From an uncultured Desulfospira sp. (GTDB lineage Bacteria; Desulfobacterota; Desulfobacteria; Desulfobacterales; Desulfobacteraceae), in NCBI GenBank assembly GCA_963663165.1, contig OY760175.1, forward strand, positions 896,001 to 960,000: DNA of 64,000 bases, read 5' to 3'. The notes under the pieces are model-generated. The model searched no databases. It saw only the letters and a program-made list of their open reading frames with translations, and had not been told where the DNA came from. The position numbers and the translations under genes are program-made. Below, one piece after another: positions 5,159 through 58,960 of this stretch (positions are counted from its first letter, which is position 1; each line of letters opens with the position of its first letter).

Positions 5159-5731
5159 ATGGGAACGAAACACACCATTTCAGAAAGTCTTGCAAGCGAT
5201 ACCTTTCCGCTTAATATCGCCATTGTGGGCGGCGGCCGGACCTGCCGGTTTTTTCTTGAGCTGATCCATGATGACCCCCTGCCGTTCTTTGATATCAAAA
5301 TACTGGGGGTGTGTGATAAAAACTCCCGGGCCGAGGGGATTCTGATGGCCCGGAAAATGGGGATATATACAAACAACAGCCTTGATGACCTGCTGAAAAT
5401 TGAACGCCTTGACAGCGTTCTTGAGCTGACGGGAAAGCAAATCGTCCTTCTTGAAATTATCCGGCTAAAACCCCGGGGGGTCGGGGTTCTTGAGTACAAT
5501 ATCAGCCGGGTGCTGCGCAATCTTCTAAAAACCCGCCAGCGGCTTGAATCAACCGAGCAACGGCTTTTGGCCGAAAAAACATTTTCCAATCTGTTGATCC
5601 GCCAGAGTACGGCGGCCATTGTTTCTATTAATACGGATTTCACCATTGTTGATGCCAATGACGCCTATCTTAAAACGGTGAAAAAGACAAAGGACCAGGT
5701 CATGGGTGCCCGCTGCTATGAAATTTCATAG
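5159..5731 (+). pseudogene. Truncated sensor protein (Rossmann-like plus PAS N-terminus)
   Basis: IAIVGGG motif, then PAS (IVDANDAYL...GARCYEIS) that stops mid-domain next to the IS91-like end. Confidence 0.7.
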
Positions 5732-5799
5732 ACAGATACAACAGATAAGAACTTGCTTTTTGACTCAAGAAGTATAGAAAAATATTGGAAGCTTGAAAT

Positions 5800-5855
5800 A
5801 TGCCCCCGCCGGGCCACAGGCACAACATGTTGTGCCTGTGGCCCGGCGGGGGCAT
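5800..5855. repeat. Perfect 56 bp palindrome
   Basis: ATGCCCCCGCCGGGCCACAGGCACAACA followed directly by its exact reverse complement. Confidence 0.95.
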
Positions 5856-6633
5856 TCGCCGAAAAAAGGGATGTCGCAGGACAGAGGTAAAAGAATAGCC
5901 TGTATCAGAAATCTCCAAAGCAAATATGAAAATTCCAAAATTTAAGCTGATTTTAAGCGCACCTCACCAGAAACCCCGCGTACAGAGAAAATCAATTCCA
6001 ATACTCAACTGCCGGGATCTGGGAGACTGAAAAGTCATAAACCAACTCAGGAATGGGATCAGAAATAACCGCCTGCGGTGGGTCATGGTTGTGGATATCC
6101 CATAAGCCCAGGTGCCGCAAAATCTTTTCGATAATATCAAGATCTTCGATAAAAGAAATAATTTTCATTTGGCCCTGACATTTTGGGCAAACCAAAGGAT
6201 CAATTTCATAAATTTTTTGGATTAATCTGGCCCAATTCTGCCTTGCTTCTTTTGAAGACATCTTATTTTGTATAATTGTCGGGATTGTGTTATCAGTTTC
6301 CGCCTTCTTTCTCATCCCCCTGGACTTGTTAGAAAAGTAACTATAGTAACGAACGGTATGCTCGTATCTTCCTGGAATATGTGTCACCAACCTGGCAAGC
6401 CAATCCAAAGCATTAAACATTTTTTGGGATTTTCCATCTTTGGCGGTATAAATGATTTTAGCAATACCATCATCAGATTTTTCGACCGGAATATAGACCA
6501 GTCTTTCCTGGGAGAAGCAGGCTCGAATGATATATCTTGCCAGGTTGCCAAGTCCGATTTTATCATCAGGCTCAATTCTGTCTCCGATATAAACTTTAAA
6601 TCCGGAATGATACCAGGAAAGCATGTTGTTCAA

Positions 6634-6652
6634 GTTTCTGCCCTTCAGGGTA
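6634..6652 (-). repeat. 19 bp micro-insertion (TACCCTGAAGGGCAGAAAC)
   Basis: Sits at a transposase frameshift; matches the other copies. Confidence 0.8.
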
Positions 6653-6992
6653 TGATGGCATCATTTATTTTCCCCTCTTTCTTGAGCATTTTCAGCACCT
6701 CATACTGAAATGCTTCTTCCAGGTCTTCAAGCATAAATATCGGAGCAGTCTGAAAGCTGCCGTCTTTTAAGAAACAACCGTCTGAAACTATGGCGTGAAG
6801 ATGCGGATTGAAATTTAGAAAGTCGCCATAGGTCTGCACTGCAATACTGGCACCGGGAACAGCTTCTCCACCCGGGACCGTAGATTTCAGGTAAGCTGTA
6901 ATAACACTCCATGCACATTTGGAAAGTTTTGCCAGTAAAGTGCGGTCATAAAGAAAATAAATTCGTAACCGTTTAGGGATGCTGAAAACCCA

Positions 6993-7011
6993 GTTTCTGA
7001 CCTTTAGGTTA
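6993..7011 (-). repeat. 19 bp micro-insertion (TAACCTAAAGGTCAGAAAC)
   Basis: Removal restores CGG CAA TGG GTT TTC (RQWVF). Confidence 0.85.
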
Positions 7012-7263
7012 TTGCCGGTATGGGACATCTTTTAAGACATTTGTCAGCAGCCATTCTCCATATTCGACAACCCTTTTCTGATGATAGGATGGGCAAAAAT
7101 GCCGGCGCTTGCAAGAAAATGCCAGAAGACACTCATGGCCACATTCTTCACAACGGACCCTGGCAAACCCCATATGAAGATCACCACAGTCGAGATATCT
7201 GTAAATTACAGTCATGACGTATGTTCGCCAATAGCCGTATCTGGATTTATACATATCATCCCA

Positions 7264-7281
7264 GTTTCTGCCCTCCGGGTA
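7264..7281 (-). repeat. 18 bp in-frame micro-insertion (TACCCGGAGGGCAGAAAC)
   Basis: Adds YPEGRN within ERV/WDD of the transposase. Confidence 0.8.
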
Positions 7282-7529
7282 CACCCGTTCCAACTCTTCA
7301 AAATGATTCTCAACACACTTGTAATATGCGCTTTCTTTGGGAGTACGCGGTTTGTAAACATCAAAATTACTTGTTGCCTGTTGGGCCATTACGCGCTTAT
7401 GTGTTAATTAGGTTTTCCAGGTGTATCAGGGTGGGCTTGGGATTGTTCAGGATGAGGGCAACTACTGGTTGTTGATGAAAACATACAATAATTGTTGAAT
7501 AAACTAAACAAAAATAAAAATTGAAATCG

Positions 7530-7577
7530 CCCTAACAAAAAAATGCTGCGGATAAACCGCAGATTTTGACGTTCTGG
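7530..7577 (+). other. Integron attC-like recombination site (48 bp)
   Basis: CCCTAAC-N5-AATGCTGC...GCAGATT-N5-GTTCTGG. L''/L' pair with one extrahelical G. A TGA lies just upstream. Confidence 0.65.
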
Positions 7578-8577
7578 GTGCGACACGAGGTCGCACTATT
7601 GGCTGTTTGCGGGCCTGTCGGTCCTGACCAAACCCGGCATTCTCCTGCCGGTACCCTATGTGGCATGCGGTTTCCGGTGCATCCGGAAACGGTGTGAAGC
7701 CCAACCGAAAACGTACCGAATTCCGCAATTGCGGAAGGGGTGGAAGCCGTGAGGCGGATATCCTCCTGGAAGCCTCAATCCGGTTGAGGGCAAGGGTTTG
7801 GATGATATGGTCAAATTAATTGAATGTTCCGTAAGTACCGTCACGGAGAGCAAGCTAAAGAGGCTGGTAAGCTTGGACCTAAAGGTGAGCGGTCAGGTTG
7901 CAGATTTCCGAACTACCGCGTGAGATGTTGCGCCGCCGGTGCTTAAGGGCAGGCCTAAGTCATCCACTAATTGGCAATAGTGTGGAACGTGGAAACCCCG
8001 TATCTTCGCCGGGAACATTCGGCAGGTGAAACCGTAAGGCACACTGATGAAGGTGCGGGAGTAAGATGCAGGAAAAAGCGAATGCCATCTTGTAATGAGG
8101 TGGATACGGATTGAGATGGATCTATTCTTCAACATTACCCGGCCCGAAAGGGAGCTGACGTCCGGCGGGTGTGGCTACAGACACACCCGGACAGGTGTTT
8201 CTTTGCGAGAAAGTCTGGAGAATCTTTGAAAATGGGAAAGCAAATGACGGCAATAGCTGGTGCGCCCATCAGCAGTTTATACTGTTAAAAGACTGTAGAT
8301 GCGTATCGCAAAGGTTGTTAGAGAAGCACACGACATGCACATCCAGAGGCATTTTCAAAAGACGTATGTTTTTTGACCAGAAAAAAAAGAACTGTACTTC
8401 CCTGGCGGATCATCAAAGAAGCATGCTATGGAATAACTGTAAATTTCATTATTGCTTAAACAACCGGGTGGCCCCGCAAGGCTTAGCCTTAGAAATGCTT
8501 GAGCCGTATGACGGGAAACTGTCACGTACGGTTCTGAGGGGGCTTGGGGCAGTTAAAACTGCCCCCGGCTACCCGAT
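7578..8577 (+). ncRNA. Group II intron (IIB/CL-like) lacking an intact RT ORF
   Basis: 5' GTGCGAC; domain V GAGCCGTATGACGGGAAACTGTCACGTACGGTTC; domain VI hairpin ending ACCCGAT; no YADD-containing ORF. Confidence 0.9.
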
Positions 8578-8726: not shown

Positions 8727-10133
8727 TCAAGGAACTATCTGCTTTCCTGCGGCTGTCTTTAACGCCTCAACCAGCGGCCATATCCTGTCCGCTGTTTTTT
8801 CGGCAAATACGCTGCTTTCCATCTCGTGCAGTCTGTCGAACCATTTTTTATCACCGGATCTGTCGTTTCGCCAGCATTGTCGGACTTTTACCGCTTCTTT
8901 GACCAGGGCCTTCATCTCTGAATTTTCAAGCAGTAGCGTTAACATTTTTTTCCCTGTGTGCTTTTTATTGTGAAGGTAAACCTCAAGACTTTGCATCAAC
9001 TCAACCCCTGTATTGTGGTCAGTTGCTTCATCGGCTGATTCCGGTTTTTGGGTTTGCACAAGCCCACCAAGTAACCCTGCGGTTCTGGGAAATCGAATAA
9101 TAGCCGAAATAAAGGGTGCCAATGCTTTTTGCCACCGGTCCATCTCACAAAGAGCAAAAGCCCGTGCAAAATTTTCCTGCGGATAGACCATGCAGACGTA
9201 CCAGGCAGCTTTTTCTGCTTCTTCCCAGGCTCCGCTGTTTAAATACACAGGAATGCGCTCCGACATTGCAGTGATTTTTTGACCGCACTCCTTGTCCAAC
9301 TTATCGCATAGTGCAAGTGCCCGGGTGTATTCGTTATTTCGGTTGCAGGTTTGCGCCAGATAGATTATCGCGCGGATGTATGGCCGGGTTGACAGATCCG
9401 ACCAGTAACTGTCCTTCCGGATCCGCTTTGGAAAAAGTGTGCGACCTATAGTCATGGCATTTTTAAAATGCGTTTTAGCTGCTGCCAGATCATTTTTTGT
9501 CACAGCGGTAAGTCCCAGATAATTGTGGCCCTCGGCATAGTTATCCCAGCACTCAACAAACAGTCCGGCCAAGGCCTCAACCTTATCATATTCCTGATTT
9601 TCATACATTTGGGCAATAGCCTCCATTCCTTCGGCAGGTATTTCACGGCGATGCATCAATGTTCGCCAGAAAAAGGGATTGTCCTGGTTCCATTCGTTTT
9701 CTTCTTGATCTGCAAGGTCAAGCCGCCAACTGATGAGATCCCGCAGATACATAAGCTCGTGTTGCTGATTTTCCAATAGCCTTGCCGATGAAATCAAAAC
9801 CTGGGGATCTGCAATTAAAAGTTCTTTGGTAAATGCAACCATGGCATTTCGAAAGCCGTTTTCCACCCTGCTCTGCTTGTATGGATAAAGATCGGGAAGA
9901 ATAGCCATGTTATTTTTTATAGCGGCGTCCAGCTTTTTCCAATCAAACCGGATCGCTGGAAACTCATCCTCAAGGAATTGCCTGAACATCTGTTTATACT
10001 TGCCGGTTGCAGCCATGGTTTCAGCCTTTGAATAGAACACGAACAATGTCTGCTGTTCCACGGAGTTGGAGACTGAATTCCTTTGCCCATGAACGATAAC
10101 AACTTGATTGCCTTTTTTTCTGACATACGCCAT
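8727..10133 (-). CDS. TPR-containing hypothetical protein
   Basis: RBS AGGGGGAG before MAYVRKKG; TPR-like AEGHNYLG..A.A...F..A; RPYIRA motif. Confidence 0.8.
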   Translation of the reverse strand: MAYVRKKGNQVVIVHGQRNSVSNSVEQQTLFVFYSKAETMAATGKYKQMFRQFLEDEFPAIRFDWKKLDAAIKNNMAILPDLYPYKQSRVENGFRNAMVAFTKELLIADPQVLISSARLLENQQHELMYLRDLISWRLDLADQEENEWNQDNPFFWRTLMHRREIPAEGMEAIAQMYENQEYDKVEALAGLFVECWDNYAEGHNYLGLTAVTKNDLAAAKTHFKNAMTIGRTLFPKRIRKDSYWSDLSTRPYIRAIIYLAQTCNRNNEYTRALALCDKLDKECGQKITAMSERIPVYLNSGAWEEAEKAAWYVCMVYPQENFARAFALCEMDRWQKALAPFISAIIRFPRTAGLLGGLVQTQKPESADEATDHNTGVELMQSLEVYLHNKKHTGKKMLTLLLENSEMKALVKEAVKVRQCWRNDRSGDKKWFDRLHEMESSVFAEKTADRIWPLVEALKTAAGKQIVP

Positions 10134-10403
10134 ATGCTCCCCCTGATGTTGTGTTTTTTTGTATAATTGCACAACAGCACGAATTGTGCAATAAATCATT
10201 TGCGCACAACAACCTTGTAATTTAAAAAAAGAAGAAAGTCATACCGCGCATAGCCAGGTTAACGATGAAAAGAGAAGAAAGCATTTGGTGGTCGCCTTTT
10301 GATGTTAAAATGGAGCCTTTACAGGAATTTTTAACAGGCCTTTTGATTTATATTTTCGTCTGATATAATGCTGAAAAATATATCCGGGAGGTACAAAAAA
10401 ATC

Positions 10404-10628
10404 ATGAGAGTAACCAATACATCAATATTTGATTTAAGCCCACCAGAAAAATTGCAGTTGGTACAGGATTTATGGGATGATCTGGCTAACACTGCATCTG
10501 ATGTCCCCATTCATGAATGGCAAAAACAAGAATTGGCCAAGAGAAAGGCTAACTTAATGACCAATCCGGCTTCTGGGCTATCATGGAACGAGGTAAAGCA
10601 AAAAGTTCGAAGTCCATATGGACGCTGA
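10404..10628 (+). CDS. Addiction-module antitoxin (TIGR02574-like)
   Basis: LSPPEKLQLVQDLWDDL...WQKQEL.KR...SWNEVK; overlaps the toxin start. Confidence 0.85.
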   Translation: MRVTNTSIFDLSPPEKLQLVQDLWDDLANTASDVPIHEWQKQELAKRKANLMTNPASGLSWNEVKQKVRSPYGR

Positions 10629-10918
10629 ACTCGTCATAGCACCTGAGGCTCTTCAAGATGTTCATGAAGCCTATAACTGGTATGAAAACAGAAGGACTGG
10701 CCTGGGTGAAGATTTTTTGAGTTGTGTGGATGCCTGTATCCAAAAAAATATGCCGGGCACCTGAATTATATATGAAGGTTCATGAGAACTATCGACGGGC
10801 ACTGGTGAGGCGCTTCCCATATGCTGTATTCTTTGAATTTGCAAATAAAAAGGTGATTGTTTACAGTATATTCCATATTTCTCAAAATCCAGGAAAATGG
10901 AAATTCCGCTTAACTTGA
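10618..10918 (+). pseudogene. RelE/ParE toxin, frameshifted
   Basis: MDAELVIAPEALQDVHEAYNWYE..GLGEDF continues as YRRALVRRFPYAVF only after a shift in the A7 run at 10742-10748. Confidence 0.85.
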
Positions 10919-11050
10919 TCAAGATTGTACAATCATAGAAAAACAAGCTCTTGAATTTCTTATTTATCCCGAGGAAAGACTTTTAAATACTTCATAACAA
11001 AAACATGCTGCGGGCAAGCCACAGATGTTTTTGTTAATCCTGACGGGAGA

Positions 11051-11185
11051 CCGGATGTGGACCAGGTGCATGTGGACCAGGAAAATAAAATCGTTACCAC
11101 GCCGGCTTATATGCTGGGACCTGGAATCAAAGACGCGGCCAAAGGAATTGAAAAACTGGTTCTGAAAATAATTGAAATGGCATGA
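11051..11185 (+). pseudogene. elbB: 3' remnant of an ElbB/ES1-family glyoxalase gene
   Basis: Translates to VHVDQENKIVTTPAYML..IKDAAKGIEKLV..IIEMA*; no start codon. Confidence 0.75.
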
Positions 11186-21120: not shown

Positions 21121-21201
21121 TATAAACGGTCACGGACCGTCCCGGGTTATCCAACCAAGAACCGTCCTAAACGAATAATGAAAGTTTTTATAAGTAGTTA
21201 A
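21121..21201 (+). repeat. ~91 bp triple-hairpin repeat, degenerate copy
   Basis: AACGGTCACGGACCGT..GGTTATCCAACCAAG..ATGAAAG. Confidence 0.8.
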
Positions 21202-24891: not shown

Positions 24892-25168
24892 ATAACGGTC
24901 ACGGACCGTCTTTGGTTATCCAACCAAGAACCGGTCCACAACAAAAGATGGAAGTCTTTACGGGTAGTTAGTCAGACTTTCATATAACGGCCACGGGCCG
25001 TCTTGGTTATCCAACCAAGAACCGCCCACAACAAATAATGAAAGTCTTCTCAGGAGGTTAGTGAGACTTTCATATAAACAGCCACGGGCTGATTTGGTTA
25101 TCCAACCAAGATCCGCCCACAACAAATAATGAAAGTCCTCTCAAGATGTTAGTGAGACTTTCATATAA
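24892..25168 (+). repeat. Three tandem copies of the ~91 bp triple-hairpin repeat
   Basis: Unit AACGGCCACGGGCCGT-CTTGGTTATCCAACCAAG-...-ATGAAAGTC..GACTTTCAT repeated head to tail. Confidence 0.95.
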
Positions 25169-31008: not shown

Positions 31009-33078
31009 ATGAATGACATCGAAAAAATCGAAAAACGTCTATGGGAGGCGGCTGACCAGTTAAGGGCAAACTCAAAGCTGACCTCTACCGAATACGCATT
31101 GCCCATATTGGGGCTGATCTTTTTGAGGCATGCCTACAACCGGTATCTGATCGTTGAAAAACAGATCAAGAAAGACCTGCCGTCCCGTGGGGGCAAGACC
31201 CGTCCCCTTACCAAGGATGATTTCGTTCAGAAAAGCGCCCTGTATCTCCAGAAGGAGGCCCAGTTCCAGTATCTGCTTGAGCTTCCCTCGGGGGAGGATA
31301 TTTCCCATAAGATCATCAATGCCATGACGATCATCGAGTCCGACTATACGGGGCTCCAAGATATCCTGCCCAGGGAATACCACATCTTCGATAACGAACT
31401 GTTGAGCAAGATGCTACGGATTTTTGACGATGAAGCCCTGCGTAACGGCAATGGGGATGTGTTTGGTCGGATCTACGAGTATTTTCTCATGAAGTTTGCC
31501 ATGGCCGGTGCCCAGGACTCCGGGGAGTTTTTTACGCCGACATCCCTGGTTCAGACCATCGTGAATGTCATTGAACCGGACCATGGGACCGTGTTTGACC
31601 CGGCTTGCGGGTCCGGCGGCATGTTCGTTCAAACCTCCCATTTTCTCAACCAGACGGGCAGGGCAACCCAGGAGGCTGTCACCTTTTACGGGCAGGAGAA
31701 GACGGCACTGACCATCCGTCTTGCCAAAATGAACCTTGCCGTGCACGGCCTTGAAGGGCAGATCCTTGAGGGAAACACCTTTTATGAGGACAACCACTGG
31801 CTTTGGGAGAAGGCTGATTTTTTGATGGCCAATCCACCGTTCAATGTGGACAAGGTGGACGCCGAAAAGATCAAGGACGATCCCCGCCTGCCCTTTGGCC
31901 TGCCCGGCGTAAACAAGAACAAGGAGGTCAGCAACGGTAATTACCTGTGGATCTCTTATTTCTACAGTTATCTCAATGGGACAGGGCGGGCCGGTTTCGT
32001 TATGAGTTCCCAGGCGTCAAGTGCGGGCAACAAAGAGGCCGATGTCCGGGAAAAGCTCATCAAGACCGGCCATGTGGATGTCATGATCGGTATCCGGTCC
32101 AACTTCTTTTATACCCGGTCGGTGCCCTGTGAGCTGTGGTTTTTTAATAAATCCAAACCTAAGACCATGGCCCGTAAGGTGCTCATGCTGGATGCCCGGA
32201 ATGTTTACCGGAAAGTTACGCGCAAGATCTACGACTTTACGCCGGAACAGCAAAAGAATCTTACGGCAATCATCTGGTTATACCGTGGCCAGACAGAGCG
32301 ATACCTGGGACTTATCAAGGCGTACCTGGGAACGTTGGTAACTGAGAGTCTGGCCGTCGAGGACGCCCTCAAAGGGTTTGCCGATGGGCAAAAGCCGCTG
32401 CTGGATAAACTCAATGCCTTCCAGAAGGTCGTCAAGGACGCCAGCCTGGGCCAATTAATCCGTGACGTGACCGGGATAGTCGAGCAGTGCAAGACCCATG
32501 GTGGAAAACTGGTGTCCGACATCAATGCGTACGGGGCTGAATACGCCGGGATTCCCGGCACGAATGACCGCCAGAACCAGGCCCGCAAAGACTTTGAGCC
32601 GATCAATGGCCAACTGAAGATGCTGCCCAAAACGATTGACCTTTTGTTTAAGCAGACGGTTCGGGGTATCGAGATTGCCGAAAAGGACCTGGACGCCAAG
32701 TCCAATGATGCGTGGGATAATCGTGAGGTCACCCGTCTGAAAAAGGAACTGGATGTCATTCGAAAAGAGGCTGTTGGGAAGCTGAAGACACCAGGGTATT
32801 ATTATCGGCAGATTGAATGGCTGCAATCGCGTTTCCCTGATGCCAAGCTTGTCGATGTCGAGGGATTGGTGAAGTTGGCCGATCAGTCGGAGCTTGAGGC
32901 CAATGACTGGAGTCTGACGCCGGGACGGTACGTTGGGGTTGCCCCGCCTGTTGAGGACGAAGATTTTGACTTTGAGGAGACCATTCGGGATATCCATCTT
33001 GAGCTTGAGGGGTTGAACCAGGAAGCCATTGAATTGGCGAGGACTATCCAGAGCAACTTTGAGGATCTTGGGATATGA
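31009..33078 (+). CDS. hsdM: Type I R-M methyltransferase subunit
   Basis: LWEAADQLRANS; GEFFTP; DPACGSGG; NPPF. Confidence 0.95.
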   Translation: MNDIEKIEKRLWEAADQLRANSKLTSTEYALPILGLIFLRHAYNRYLIVEKQIKKDLPSRGGKTRPLTKDDFVQKSALYLQKEAQFQYLLELPSGEDISHKIINAMTIIESDYTGLQDILPREYHIFDNELLSKMLRIFDDEALRNGNGDVFGRIYEYFLMKFAMAGAQDSGEFFTPTSLVQTIVNVIEPDHGTVFDPACGSGGMFVQTSHFLNQTGRATQEAVTFYGQEKTALTIRLAKMNLAVHGLEGQILEGNTFYEDNHWLWEKADFLMANPPFNVDKVDAEKIKDDPRLPFGLPGVNKNKEVSNGNYLWISYFYSYLNGTGRAGFVMSSQASSAGNKEADVREKLIKTGHVDVMIGIRSNFFYTRSVPCELWFFNKSKPKTMARKVLMLDARNVYRKVTRKIYDFTPEQQKNLTAIIWLYRGQTERYLGLIKAYLGTLVTESLAVEDALKGFADGQKPLLDKLNAFQKVVKDASLGQLIRDVTGIVEQCKTHGGKLVSDINAYGAEYAGIPGTNDRQNQARKDFEPINGQLKMLPKTIDLLFKQTVRGIEIAEKDLDAKSNDAWDNREVTRLKKELDVIRKEAVGKLKTPGYYYRQIEWLQSRFPDAKLVDVEGLVKLADQSELEANDWSLTPGRYVGVAPPVEDEDFDFEETIRDIHLELEGLNQEAIELARTIQSNFEDLGI

Positions 33079-34205
33079 GCTGGCTGACGCAAAAGCTTGG
33101 TGACGTTCTTACGCTGAAAAGGGGCTATGATTTACCTTCGTCAAAACGACAATTCGGTTCAATACCAATTATTTCATCATCAGGCATAACTGGAACACAT
33201 AATATTTGTAAGGTTGAAGGTCCCGGTGTTGTTACAGGGCGTTACGGCACCATAGGAAAGGTCTATTATGTAAACAACGATTTCTGGCCATTGAACACTG
33301 CCTTGTATGTGCAGGACTTCAAAGGCAATGACCCAAGGTTTGTTTCCTATTTTTTAAGTCACGTTTTGATGTTCACACAAAGTGACAAAGCTGCTGTGCC
33401 TGGAGTAAATCGAAATGACCTTCATGCCAAGGATGTTTTGTTTCCACCCAAGGAAATTCACACTAAAATTGCCTCCATCCTGACCGCCTACGATGACCTC
33501 ATCGAGAACAACAACCGCCGGATAGCCCTCCTTGAGGACTCCGCACGTCAGCTTTACCGTGAGTGGTTCGTGAGGTTGCGGTTTCCCGGGCATGAGAACA
33601 CAAGGATCACCGATGGTGTGCCCGATGGATGGGAGAAGGCTGCTGTTTCTAACTTTTGTACCGTTGGTAGAGGAGCTTCCCCGAGGCCAATCAAAGACTA
33701 TATGGGGGGCGATATTCCGTGGTTTAAAATCGGTGACGCTACTGCTTCAGAAAGCCCGTATATCTTTGAGACTGTAGAAAAGGTGACCGAAGATGGATCT
33801 CAGAAGAGTATCATACTGCCTGTTGGCGAGTTGATTCTCTCAAATAGTGCTACATGTGGGATTCCCAATTTTACGGGTGTTTCTGGTTGTATCCACGACG
33901 GTTGGCTTTATTTCAAAGGGTTAAAGCATATAAGTAAGTACTTTCTCTATCTTTACCTTATTTTTCAGCAACAAGCTCTCCTGCAAGGTATTGGAGATGG
34001 TGCAACTCAGAAGAATTTAAACACCAAATACGTTTCAAACCAACCACTTCTTGTGCCTAAATCAACCAAATTGCTTGTGCGTTTTGATAAACTGGTTCAA
34101 CCAAAGTTCGATTATATTGAAAACCTGGCGAAACAAAATCAAAAGCTCAAAGCCGCCCGTGACCTCCTGTTACCCAAACTCATGAACGGAGAGATACCCG
34201 TATGA
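33075..34205 (+). CDS. hsdS: Type I R-M specificity subunit
   Basis: Two AT-richer TRDs; conserved DDLIENN.RRI and RDLLLPKLM.GEI. Confidence 0.95.
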   Translation: MSWLTQKLGDVLTLKRGYDLPSSKRQFGSIPIISSSGITGTHNICKVEGPGVVTGRYGTIGKVYYVNNDFWPLNTALYVQDFKGNDPRFVSYFLSHVLMFTQSDKAAVPGVNRNDLHAKDVLFPPKEIHTKIASILTAYDDLIENNNRRIALLEDSARQLYREWFVRLRFPGHENTRITDGVPDGWEKAAVSNFCTVGRGASPRPIKDYMGGDIPWFKIGDATASESPYIFETVEKVTEDGSQKSIILPVGELILSNSATCGIPNFTGVSGCIHDGWLYFKGLKHISKYFLYLYLIFQQQALLQGIGDGATQKNLNTKYVSNQPLLVPKSTKLLVRFDKLVQPKFDYIENLAKQNQKLKAARDLLLPKLMNGEIPV

Positions 34206-37200
34206 CAGGCCCCATGACCGAAGACAGACTTGTTCAGAAGACCACTGCTGAGTACTTTGAGTCGGAACTTGGATGGAACTCAGTGTATGCCTATAATGCT
34301 GAGGACTTCGGTCAGGACTCCCTGCTGGGGCGGAATGACGATACCGAGGTGGTGCTGGTCCAGCACCTTCTAAAGGCCCTGAAACAATACAACCCCGGCC
34401 TGCCCGAAACTGCCTATGAGTCAGCCGTAACGACAATTGCCGCCACCAGTGTCAGCAAGTCCGCCCTCCAGGCGAACCGGGAGAAATACGGGCTGTTCAA
34501 AAGCGGTGTCCCGGTCAAGTTCAAGAACGATAAGGGGATTATCGAAGAGCGGCGCCTCAAGGTCTTTGACTTTGGCGATCCACTGAACAATGATTTCCTG
34601 GTGGTCCGTGAATTGTGGATCGCAAAGCTTCCCTACCGGCGGCGTCCGGATATCATCGGGTTTGTCAACGGCATCCCTTTGCTGTTCATTGAACTAAAGA
34701 ACATCCATAAGGATATCCGCCGGGCCTATAATGAAAACCTCAAGGATTACAAGGACACCATTCCCCATTTATTTGATCACAATGCCTTTATCATGCTCTC
34801 CAACGGGGATAAGGCCAGGATGGGATCACTGTCAGCCAGGTATGGCCACTTCAAGGATTGGAAACGTCTGGACGAGGATGAACCGGGTGTGGTGGACTTT
34901 GAGACCATGCTCAAGGGGGTGTGCACCAAGTCAAACTTTATGGATCTTTTTGAAAATTTTATCCTGTTTGACGAGAGTGCCGGGACCCTTGCCAAAATCG
35001 TTGCGCGAAACCATCAGTATCTTGGGGTAAACCGGGCCGTTCGATCGGTACGGGACCGCAATGCCCTTGAAGGACAGCTCGGGGTCTTCTGGCATACCCA
35101 GGGGTCCGGCAAATCCTATTCCATGGTGTTCTTTTCCCAGAAGGTTCACCGTAAACTCACCGGAAATTTTACCTTTCTGATTGTCACGGATCGAGAAGAC
35201 CTGGATACTCAGCTTTACAAGACCTTTGCCGGATGCGGTATTGTGGATAACGATAAGGACCACTGCCGGGCATCAAGCGGGGCTGATCTTCGGGAACTGT
35301 TCTCTTCAAGCAAGGCGTACATCTTCACCATGGTCCACAAGTTCAATAAGGACGTGGCTGGCCCCGGGGATATCTATTCTGATCGGTCCGACATCATTGT
35401 TATCTCCGATGAGGCCCATCGTACCCAGTATGGCCGTCTTGCCCTGAATATGCGCAATGCACTTCCCCATGCCCACTACATCGGGTTTACCGGGACTCCG
35501 TTGTTCAAGGATGATGAGATCACCAAAAAAATATTCGGCGGGTACGTATCCACCTATGACTTCCAGCGGGCTGTTGAGGATAATGCAACAGTTCCACTCT
35601 TCTATGACAGCCGGGGGGAGAAACTTGGGCTGGCCACCACGAACATCAACATGAAACTGGCTGAAAAGCTTGAAGCCATTGAACTGGATGCGGACCAGGA
35701 GGCACTTCTGGAAAAGGACCTGTCCCGGGCGTACCATGTGATTACCGCCACCAGAAGGCTTACGGCCATTGCCCGGGATTTTGTTGAGCATTACGCCACC
35801 GCCTGGGAAACCGGCAAGGCCATGTTTGTCAGCCTCGACAAAATCACGGCCCTGCGGATGTATAATCTGGTTCAAGGGTTCTGGCAGGAACAAATTCAGA
35901 AAACCGACGCCGGCATGAAAGAGGCCTGTGACGAACAGGAATTAATGGGTCTGCGGCGTAAACTTGAATGGCTCAAAGAAACCCGGATGGCGGTGGTCGT
36001 GAGCGAAGAGCAGGGGGAGATTGAGAAGTTCAAACACTGGGATCTGGATATTATCCCCCACCGGGCACGCATGAAAAACGGATTTGAGACGTCTGACGGC
36101 AAGACCCTTGAAATCGACCTGGCATTCAAACGGGAGAATCACCCGTTCCGGGTTGTCTTTGTCTGTGCCATGTGACTGACGGGGTTTGATGTCCCAAGCC
36201 TTTCAACCCTCTACCTTGATAAACCCTTAAAGGCCCATACGCTGATGCAGGCCATTGCCCGGGCAAACCGCATCAACGAAGGAAAGAACAACGGGCTGAT
36301 TGTCGACTATTGCGGTATATTGAAAAATCTGAGGGAAGCGCTTGCCACTTTCGCTTCTGGTGGCGGCGCAGGTGGCGGTGTTCCCGAACCGCCCGTTAAA
36401 CCAGATGAAGAACTGCTTGAGGAACTGGCCGGGGCCATTGACCACACCAGGGTCTTTTTGAAGGAACGGGGGTTTGAGCTTGAGAGCATTTCCGAAAAAA
36501 CAGGATTTCAAAAAATTGCCGCCATAAAAGATGCCAAAAACGTGATCAATCAGAGTGAAGAGACCCGGAAGCGGTTTGAAATACAGGCACGGATGGTTTT
36601 TAAGAAATTTAAAGGCTGTCTGAACATCAAGGCTGTAAACGACTTCAGGCAGCCCCATGACGCCATTGACATTGTTTATAAAAAGCTGCTCGGGGATCGG
36701 GATAAAGCCGACATCAGCCGGATCATCCAGGATCTTCATAAGGTGGTGGACCAGGCCGTGGAAGTAAGGGAGGCCGGGCCGGGTGTTGATGACTACCTTT
36801 ATGATATCAGCAAGATAGACTTTAAGCTGCTGCAAGAAGAGTTTGCCAAAAAGAAACACAAGAACACAACGGTCTATTGCCTGAAAGAGGCCATTGAAAA
36901 GAAGCTTGCACGGATGCTGAAACAAAATCCCTTGAGGACCGACTTCAACAAACGCTATCAGGAGATCATCCAAGCGTATAATGAAGAAAAGAACAGATCC
37001 ACCATTGAGAAGACCTTTGAGGAGCTGATGAAGTATTACCGGCAGTTGTCCGAGGAAGAAAGGCGGGCCGCACGGGAAGGCCTTACCGAGGAACAGCTGG
37101 CGATCTTTGATCTATTACTCAAACCGGAAATATCAAAGGCGGACCGGGAAAAGGTGAAGCGCATCGCATCGCCGGTGAGCTTCTTGAGTTGTTAAAGGCT

Positions 37201-58529: not shown

Positions 58530-58632
58530 TCCATTGGAAACCGGAAACCGAAGACGGCAGACCGGAAGGTTTTAACCCGGAAAATTAACACATCAGGTTT
58601 TCCGGTCTCCAGTCGCCATTCTTTATATTTTT

Positions 58633-58960
58633 ATATGAAAGTCTCACTAACAAGCTGAAAAGACTTTCATTTTTCGTTGTGGGCGGTGCTTGGTTGGATA
58701 ACCAAGGCGGCCCGTGGCCGTTTATATGAAAGTCTCACTAACGTCCTGAGAAGACTTTCAATATTTGTTGTGGGCGGCTCTTGGTTGGATAACCAAAGCG
58801 GCCCGAGGCCGTTTATAAGAAACTGGAGACAAGAAACAAGAGACAAGAGGGCGAAGCACCTGCGGTGCCCAATTTATAGTCTACCGTTGCTGGTATCTTC
58901 AGTTTCATTATTCGTTGTGGGCGGCTCTTGGTTGGATAACCAAAGCGGCCCGTGGCCGTT
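58633..58960 (-). repeat. Two full and one partial copy of the ~91 bp triple-hairpin repeat
   Basis: Reverse complement of the 24892-25168 units; the third copy is separated by about 90 bp of other sequence. Confidence 0.92.

Follow-up and report, generated by a model that had tools for sequence, protein, structure and literature searches.

Group II introns have been described at attC sites before. According to the available text of three sources (PMC7923331, PMC8876359, PMC4424553), the group IIC-attC introns (S.ma.I2 and its relatives) target attC sites in integrons and CALINs and lack an endonuclease domain; they are class C introns that lie on the bottom strand, in opposite orientation, at R'' (TTGT/T), and recognize the site as a hairpin. 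The first-pass annotation of the DNA studied here took this class and orientation to be the norm for attC-targeting introns, but one same-strand CL1 case is already in print. In the available text of Sonbol and Siam 2021 (PMC7923331), UHB.I2 is a single CL1/IIB1 intron of a soda-lake cassette array, set directly after an attC in cassette orientation, and its CL1 protein has no endonuclease domain. The same text cites Rodriguez-Martinez 2012 for a top-strand IIC intron of Enterobacter cloacae. As described in the accessible part of Mohr 2010 (PMC2882425), TeI3/TeI4 of Thermosynechococcus elongatus are IIB introns that proliferate in one genome and include ORF-less copies, twintrons, and varying EBS sequences. 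Canonical attC sites are given as 57-141 bp (PMC3053210) or, in mobile integrons, 56-141 bp (PMC5371416), with a VTS of 20-100 nt (PMC4889954), each in the portion of the article available. A literature search with subscription journals largely outside its coverage returned one paper on IIB introns at attC (PMC7923331) and none on minimal attC sites.

We analyzed a window of 64,000 nt from an uncultured Desulfospira sp. (contig OY760175.1, positions 896,001-960,000 of the forward strand; unless stated otherwise, coordinates below are window numbering), in which a 48-bp attC is followed directly by a group II intron. Taking the evidence as a whole, we consider it very probable that the short attC is genuine, that the CL1/IIB1 intron homes into such sites by pairing its EBS1 with their GTT, and that its copies recombine with one another.

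The intron is ORF-less and occupies 1000 nt of the plus strand (7578-8577), with Rfam group II domain matches at 7633-7791 (domain I) and 8499-8577 (domains V-VI) and about 90% identity to ORF-bearing copies. As annotated, GTGCG begins 4 nt after the GTT (intron start 7578, GTT 7571-7573). The intron thus has a GUGYG start, and domains V (34 nt, AGC triad) and VI, recognized by Rfam and by inspection of domain V, run from 8501 to 8577 and end in AT, of the form AY. A large deletion in domain IV took most of the ORF, and translation of 8232-8500 (plus strand) recovers N- and C-terminal scraps with stops. The intact protein of a sister copy has 528 aa and contains RVT_N, RVT_1, and GIIM; a domain search found no HNH domain. 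Among solved structures its best match is 6ME0, the CL1 protein of T. elongatus; this match scores 555 bits, and the next group II reverse transcriptases score 117-121 bits (117 for GsI-IIC). Given these scores and the lack of an HNH domain, the intron is of class CL1/IIB1 and not class C; it has neither a class C protein nor a short domain V with a CGC triad. The annotation of a non-IIC intron on the top strand was therefore correct. The attC-intron junction is matched with 0 differences by a 156-nt contig from a public run, which may be the source sample; contigs from public runs showed neither an empty allele nor a spliced form, which proves nothing. Unrelated group II introns at G000:C1:1160397-1161826, 1366263, and 2421452 of this genome, one with a class C-type domain V, were used as outgroups.

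Canonical attC geometry had been noted within 48 bp, and it is borne out at 7530-7577 (plus strand) by box spacing, fold, and family alignment. The site consists of R'' (7530-7536), a spacer (7537-7541), L'' (7542-7549), a central part of 9 nt (7550-7558), L' (7559-7565), a second spacer (7566-7570), and R' (7571-7577, beginning with GTT at 7571-7573), and thus has all four boxes, the AAC-GTT triplet, the spacers, and an extrahelical base (7545, within L''). The extrahelical G reported earlier is present, but as a top-strand base; its counterpart on the recombining bottom strand is a C. Several of the clinical attC sites that we compared share a bottom-strand extrahelical C, and such sites are tolerated and active according to the available text of PMC3053210. 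The bottom strand of 7530-7577 folds at z = -4.2, and 0 of 200 shuffles were equally stable. A covariance model of 12 known (clinical) attC sites, from which five longer, badly aligning sites were left out, matched the window site weakly and in the correct register (9.7 bits, E 4.7). A second 48-bp site of the same family, lacking an intron, was identified at 10992-11039 (plus strand) by fold and family match; it gave no match with the 12-site model. An attC pattern scorer returned 134 matches genome-wide, which was too noisy, and it was excluded from the counts. The length of 48 bp lies below the published 56-141 bp, a described range and no rule.

The window site is one of a family of 48-49 bp with 12 copies in the genome, a census rather than a test, as the same copies built the family model. 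Conserved among its members are the AAC and GTT triplets, the two spacers, and the extrahelical base; their stems show compensatory changes, a signal that kinship of the sequences can inflate. Matches to the family occur in 24 of 120 other genomes, some of them ordinary attC sites of 55-64 bp. One related genome (G037) has a complete integron in which 4.0 kb separate the integrase from a 48-bp member that stands amid ordinary attC sites, and two members each score 23 bits on the independent 12-site model. The R'/R'' footprint, in which R' at the start of a cassette equals R'' at its end, is perfect after one short-family member in G037 and also after the short attC beside the second IS91 copy of the Desulfospira genome; in the cassette ending in the G037 48-bp site, R' and R'' agree at the three variable bases. 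Integrase or array context and the footprint are found for the family in these two settings and not for the window copy itself, for which no downstream attC matching R' was found. The short family very probably consists of true attC sites. The 48-bp hairpin is predicted from its sequence to be a short yet genuine attC that IntI recombines, and we think it reasonably likely that the window copy still works.

Further short or related sites were seen in other genomes. Against the clinical model, a 45-bp attC of a complete integron (L227:11864-11908, in the G037 array that also holds the 48-bp member) reaches 28 bits, and the next cassette shows perfect R'/R'' agreement. Two 59-bp attC sites (L226:7134-7192 and L231:6224-6282) have the boxes and spacers of the 48-bp family and are possible longer parents. 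Short attC sites adjoin other IS91-type genes in G037 (L229) and G017 (L235), as judged by eye from translations.

The window has no match to an integron integrase, as had been stated; one is present elsewhere in the genome. The description of the locus as a cassette-array remnant fits, since members of the attC family form part of a complete integron elsewhere and another site of this kind is present 3.4 kb downstream. The AT-rich gene tail ending in TGA that was annotated ahead of the attC is merely suggested, as no ORF of at least 70 aa ends at that TGA. Beyond the intron, a 490-aa ORF with weak TPR matches, single-copy in the genome, runs against the cassette direction (8727-10199, minus strand). 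An addiction-module antitoxin (Pfam Unstab_antitox) and then a frameshifted RelE/ParE-like gene (by eye; its first piece has no Pfam match) form a pair upstream of the second attC (10368-10917, plus strand). The region is bounded on one side by a truncated PAS-domain gene (5159-5740) with an 86% identical paralogue elsewhere and on the other by the 3' end of an ElbB/DJ-1-like gene (11040-11185; by eye, no Pfam match). Elsewhere in the window are tandem repeats of about 90 nt (21125-21200, 24894-25167, 58630-58960) and type I restriction-modification genes (31009-37195, by eye) with the R subunit split in two frames.

Upstream of the attC is an IS91-family element on the minus strand, with its transposase gene broken into three reading frames (5992-7389; Pfam Zn_Tnp_IS91 and Y2_Tnp); an intact copy elsewhere in the genome has 446 aa. 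Downstream of this Y2 transposase is an oriIS-type end (5741-5760, minus strand), placed at the end point common to the genomic copies, and a similar motif follows the transposase in several relatives (by eye). No upstream end (terIS) common to the genomic copies or relatives was found. A perfect 28-bp inverted repeat near the IS91 end (5800-5855) is common to the copies. The stretch between transposase start and attC (7390-7529) is shared with the second, intact IS91 copy, where the common sequence reaches the GTT of the sister short attC and a true cassette then begins. The proposed link between attC and a rolling-circle element holds for these two copies, but none of 29 other loci with related IS91 transposases has an attC nearby, and we reject a general IS91-attC association. 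One-ended rolling-circle capture of flanking DNA is known from ISCR elements. By analogy, the IS91 element most likely carried the adjoining attC along by one-ended rolling-circle transposition; it is context, outside the intron system.

BLAST found 16 intron 5' ends in the genome, mostly within three cassette arrays; the start of one array adjoins an integron integrase (TIGR02249, 456 bits). An exon flank is present for 15 of the ends, and the remaining one belongs to the copy that was the target in a twintron. In all 15, the junction follows GTT/GTC at a distance of 3-4 nt: 3 nt in 10 copies and 4 nt in 5, the window copy among the latter. Thirteen are at long attC sites (of 44 counted in the genome), one is the window site, and one is doubtful, so that 14 are at clear attC sites. 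All 14 attC-linked copies are on the top strand at R', and none shows bottom-strand insertion at R''. The first-pass annotation had suspected an unusual target preference and proposed comparing the flanks of other copies; the preference is real, with copies and relatives at the same attC position and EBS1 pairing with the GTT core.

Introns occupy distal attC sites and leave proximal ones free in the arrays of this genome at 1.86-1.92, 4.18-4.19, and 5.54-5.61 Mb. The intact intron copy is at G000 5573101-5575411. In the twintron (G000:C1:4187788-4191082) an ORF-bearing copy follows the first three bases of an ORF-less copy. GC skew places the replication origin near 4.0-4.2 Mb and the terminus near 0.75 Mb; by this measure intron clusters are on both template strands, so no replication-strand preference can be claimed.

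How the intron reads its target was examined through its exon-binding sites. EBS1 (CCGAAC, 7908-7913, plus strand) pairs through its AAC with the GTT of R', and the 6-nt EBS1-IBS1 pairing is 6/6 with one bulged target base and 5/6 without the bulge. The same loop is complementary to the 5' exon of each non-attC relative, which identifies it as EBS1, and each of the 13 genomic copies still possessing the loop has AAC at its end. Its variable half tracks the target marginally among the 13 copies (p = 0.055). The 1-nt longer register (5 of 15 copies) may stem from a bulge in the pairing or from one additional G at the 5' junction. EBS2 (7844-7849, plus strand) was located as a statistical column in non-clade relatives, which average 4.4/6 pairs with exon positions -8 to -13; the window copy has a private G-to-C change there. 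The best column within the clade reaches 2.8/6, and EBS2 of the array copies makes 5/6 pairs with the commonest long-attC spacer and pairs weakly with the short spacer of the window copy. The search for both sites suggested by the earlier annotation thus recovered an EBS1 that pairs with the GTT core, but an EBS2 whose pairing in the window copy is weak. A first EBS2 candidate near 7885 had no signal in the clade and was dropped.

The comparison covered 158 related loci, made up of the 79 best out of at least 578 and the 79 best out of at least 593; 108 of them have a placeable 5' end and at least 25 nt of flank. The protein tree shows a core clade (support 1.0, 27 junctions), which a sister group (0.99, 5 junctions) joins with support 0.54. 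With the caveat that the clade boundary was drawn with labels in view and that kin are not independent, the junction follows GTT within 1-4 nt in 27 of 32 clade members versus 4 of 76 loci outside, and the EBS1 loop has AAC in 30 of 32 versus 6 of 76. The five other clade members are not after GTT, and some members follow a GTT where no attC is visible. Matches to the independent 12-site attC model terminate at the junction for 16 of the 32 clade loci (under mixed filter settings, with one match weak) versus 0 of 74 non-clade loci; one further such match is at a locus outside the clade, L165. The register tracks where AAC sits in the EBS1 loop: introns whose loop ends in AAC are in register +3, those with AACG in +2, and those with AAC shifted once more in +1. 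When 400 genomes of the order were searched at the DNA level, more junctions of this kind came up, and of 26 loci compared with the attC model 6 gave a match. Introns at L293, L298, and L227:6167-6242 begin immediately behind the G-T of the attC core; the protein from G037 groups outside the main clade, which hints at a second CL1 lineage on attC. At L030 and L175, a second group II intron lies immediately upstream, its 3' end abutting the clade-type intron.

From the observed intron class, EBS1 position, insertion pattern, and agreement of register with EBS1, we propose the following mechanism. A non-autonomous member of a CL1/IIB1 lineage would home into the top strand of attC, with the AAC of EBS1 pairing with the invariant GTT of R' and the first EBS1 bases reading the variable bases after it. 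Because the protein has no endonuclease domain, we infer reverse splicing into single-stranded DNA; ORF-less copies would be mobilized in trans by ORF-bearing ones. The insertion point is downstream of the G|TT crossover, so the attC stays intact and the intron becomes the 5' end of the next cassette. Homologous recombination between the roughly 15 near-identical copies at equivalent places could then swap flanks.

Footprints in the long arrays are consistent with such swapping. Among intron-free cassettes, R' and R'' agree in 19 of the 21 shorter than 1.5 kb and in 24 of 28 when distance is not limited; among intron-bearing cassettes, a small sample, they agree in 1 of 5 (1 of 6 with a longer case). 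Two of the expected 5' exons were found in front of other copies. Eleven intron copies are mosaic, with incompatible site pairs in 25 of 330 near comparisons versus 170 of 636 far ones (0 of 500 permutations as low). Recombination between copies appears to be the simplest reading of the broken R'/R'' matches and mosaics, small as the sample is, and it implies that the two flanks in the window may not stem from one insertion. The window intron might then never have homed here, its junction or downstream flank having been brought by cassette or intron-copy recombination. We hold this to be possible rather than probable. In its favor, the sequence that follows the G moves together with the downstream cassette, 4 of the 5 intron cassettes that could be tested have swapped flanks, EBS2 fits the long spacer of the arrays better than the window spacer, and the 3' flank in the window lacks a matching attC; on the other side, two other genomes also have introns of this lineage behind short sites (L085, L229/L288), and the private EBS1 of the window copy fits its own target. 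The question concerns the history of this copy, and either answer is compatible with the best explanation, homing by EBS1-GTT pairing.

Recognition of the attC hairpin as a structure, as in class C introns, with the EBS1 match secondary, is in our view unlikely. The weak EBS2 pairing in the clade and top strands that fold nearly as well as bottom strands would suit it, and the available text of Sonbol and Siam speculates on hairpin recognition for UHB.I2 (PMC7923331). It does not account for a register that shifts with the position of AAC in EBS1, for the clade members L032, L079, and L168, which follow GTT where no attC is visible, or for the twintron in this genome, whose inner target has no attC. 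The hairpin may still contribute to targeting. More doubtful again is that the 48-bp hairpin is a minus-strand intrinsic terminator or an IS91 end signal and no working attC. The stretch 7530-7577 is called terminator-like on the minus strand, but such matches occur at chance level (3 found, 2.3 expected). A hairpin at the same place in both IS91 copies would fit an end signal, yet none lies beside the 29 related transposases. The weak score on the clinical model and the fact that most of the 12 genomic copies stand alone also fit this reading, against which stand the conserved triplets, spacers, and extrahelical base with compensatory changes, and the members that obey the R'/R'' rule within a complete integron array. 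A short attC read through EBS1-GTT pairing remains the preferred explanation.

Homing by EBS1 would give group II introns a second route of integron colonization: they would pair, on the gene-sense strand, with three bases whose variation integrases cannot allow, and the attC would be left intact. It makes the testable prediction that EBS1 swaps change the insertion register. The swapped flanks suggest a role for such introns in remodeling cassette arrays. With the 48-bp family, natural attC sites extend to a smaller size than previously known, and searches calibrated on clinical attC may overlook some arrays. More speculatively, and with the chances perhaps slightly short of even, top-strand attC introns may act as portable homology at cassette starts, reordering or splitting arrays without the integrase as a second shuffling route for sedentary integrons, and attC sites of 45-49 bp, little more than R and L boxes, may be working sites common in the order.

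Compared with described systems, the window intron is closest in setting to UHB.I2, which begins TTGCG and has AACG in the matching loop, resembling the +2 sub-lineage here (by eye, unaligned, and outside the tree). The available text on UHB.I2 (PMC7923331) presents one instance, describes no lineage, and gives no EBS1-GTT explanation, although its figures may show the pairing. The window intron, in contrast, is an ORF-less copy in the +3/+4 register, of a type with about 15 copies in one genome, at a 48-bp target. The Enterobacter cloacae intron, as cited there, shares the top strand of attC and the cassette orientation but is class C, not CL1. Unlike the group IIC-attC introns, the window lineage is CL1, inserts in the top strand at R', and reads its target with a 6-nt EBS1. 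TeI3/TeI4 differ in encoding an En domain and, in the text available (PMC2882425), have no tie to attC. The window attC shares with canonical sites its R and L boxes, its AAC/GTT triplet, an unpaired spacer, and an extrahelical base, but it is 48 bp long, with L'' and L' separated by only 9 nt, and it lacks the second extrahelical base, which the 49-bp members have. The element is like an ordinary IIB homing intron and has only its target in common with IIC-attC introns. A CL1 intron lying same-strand behind an attC was already known from one case; added here are a family of 48-49 bp attC sites and a sign of intron-driven shuffling.
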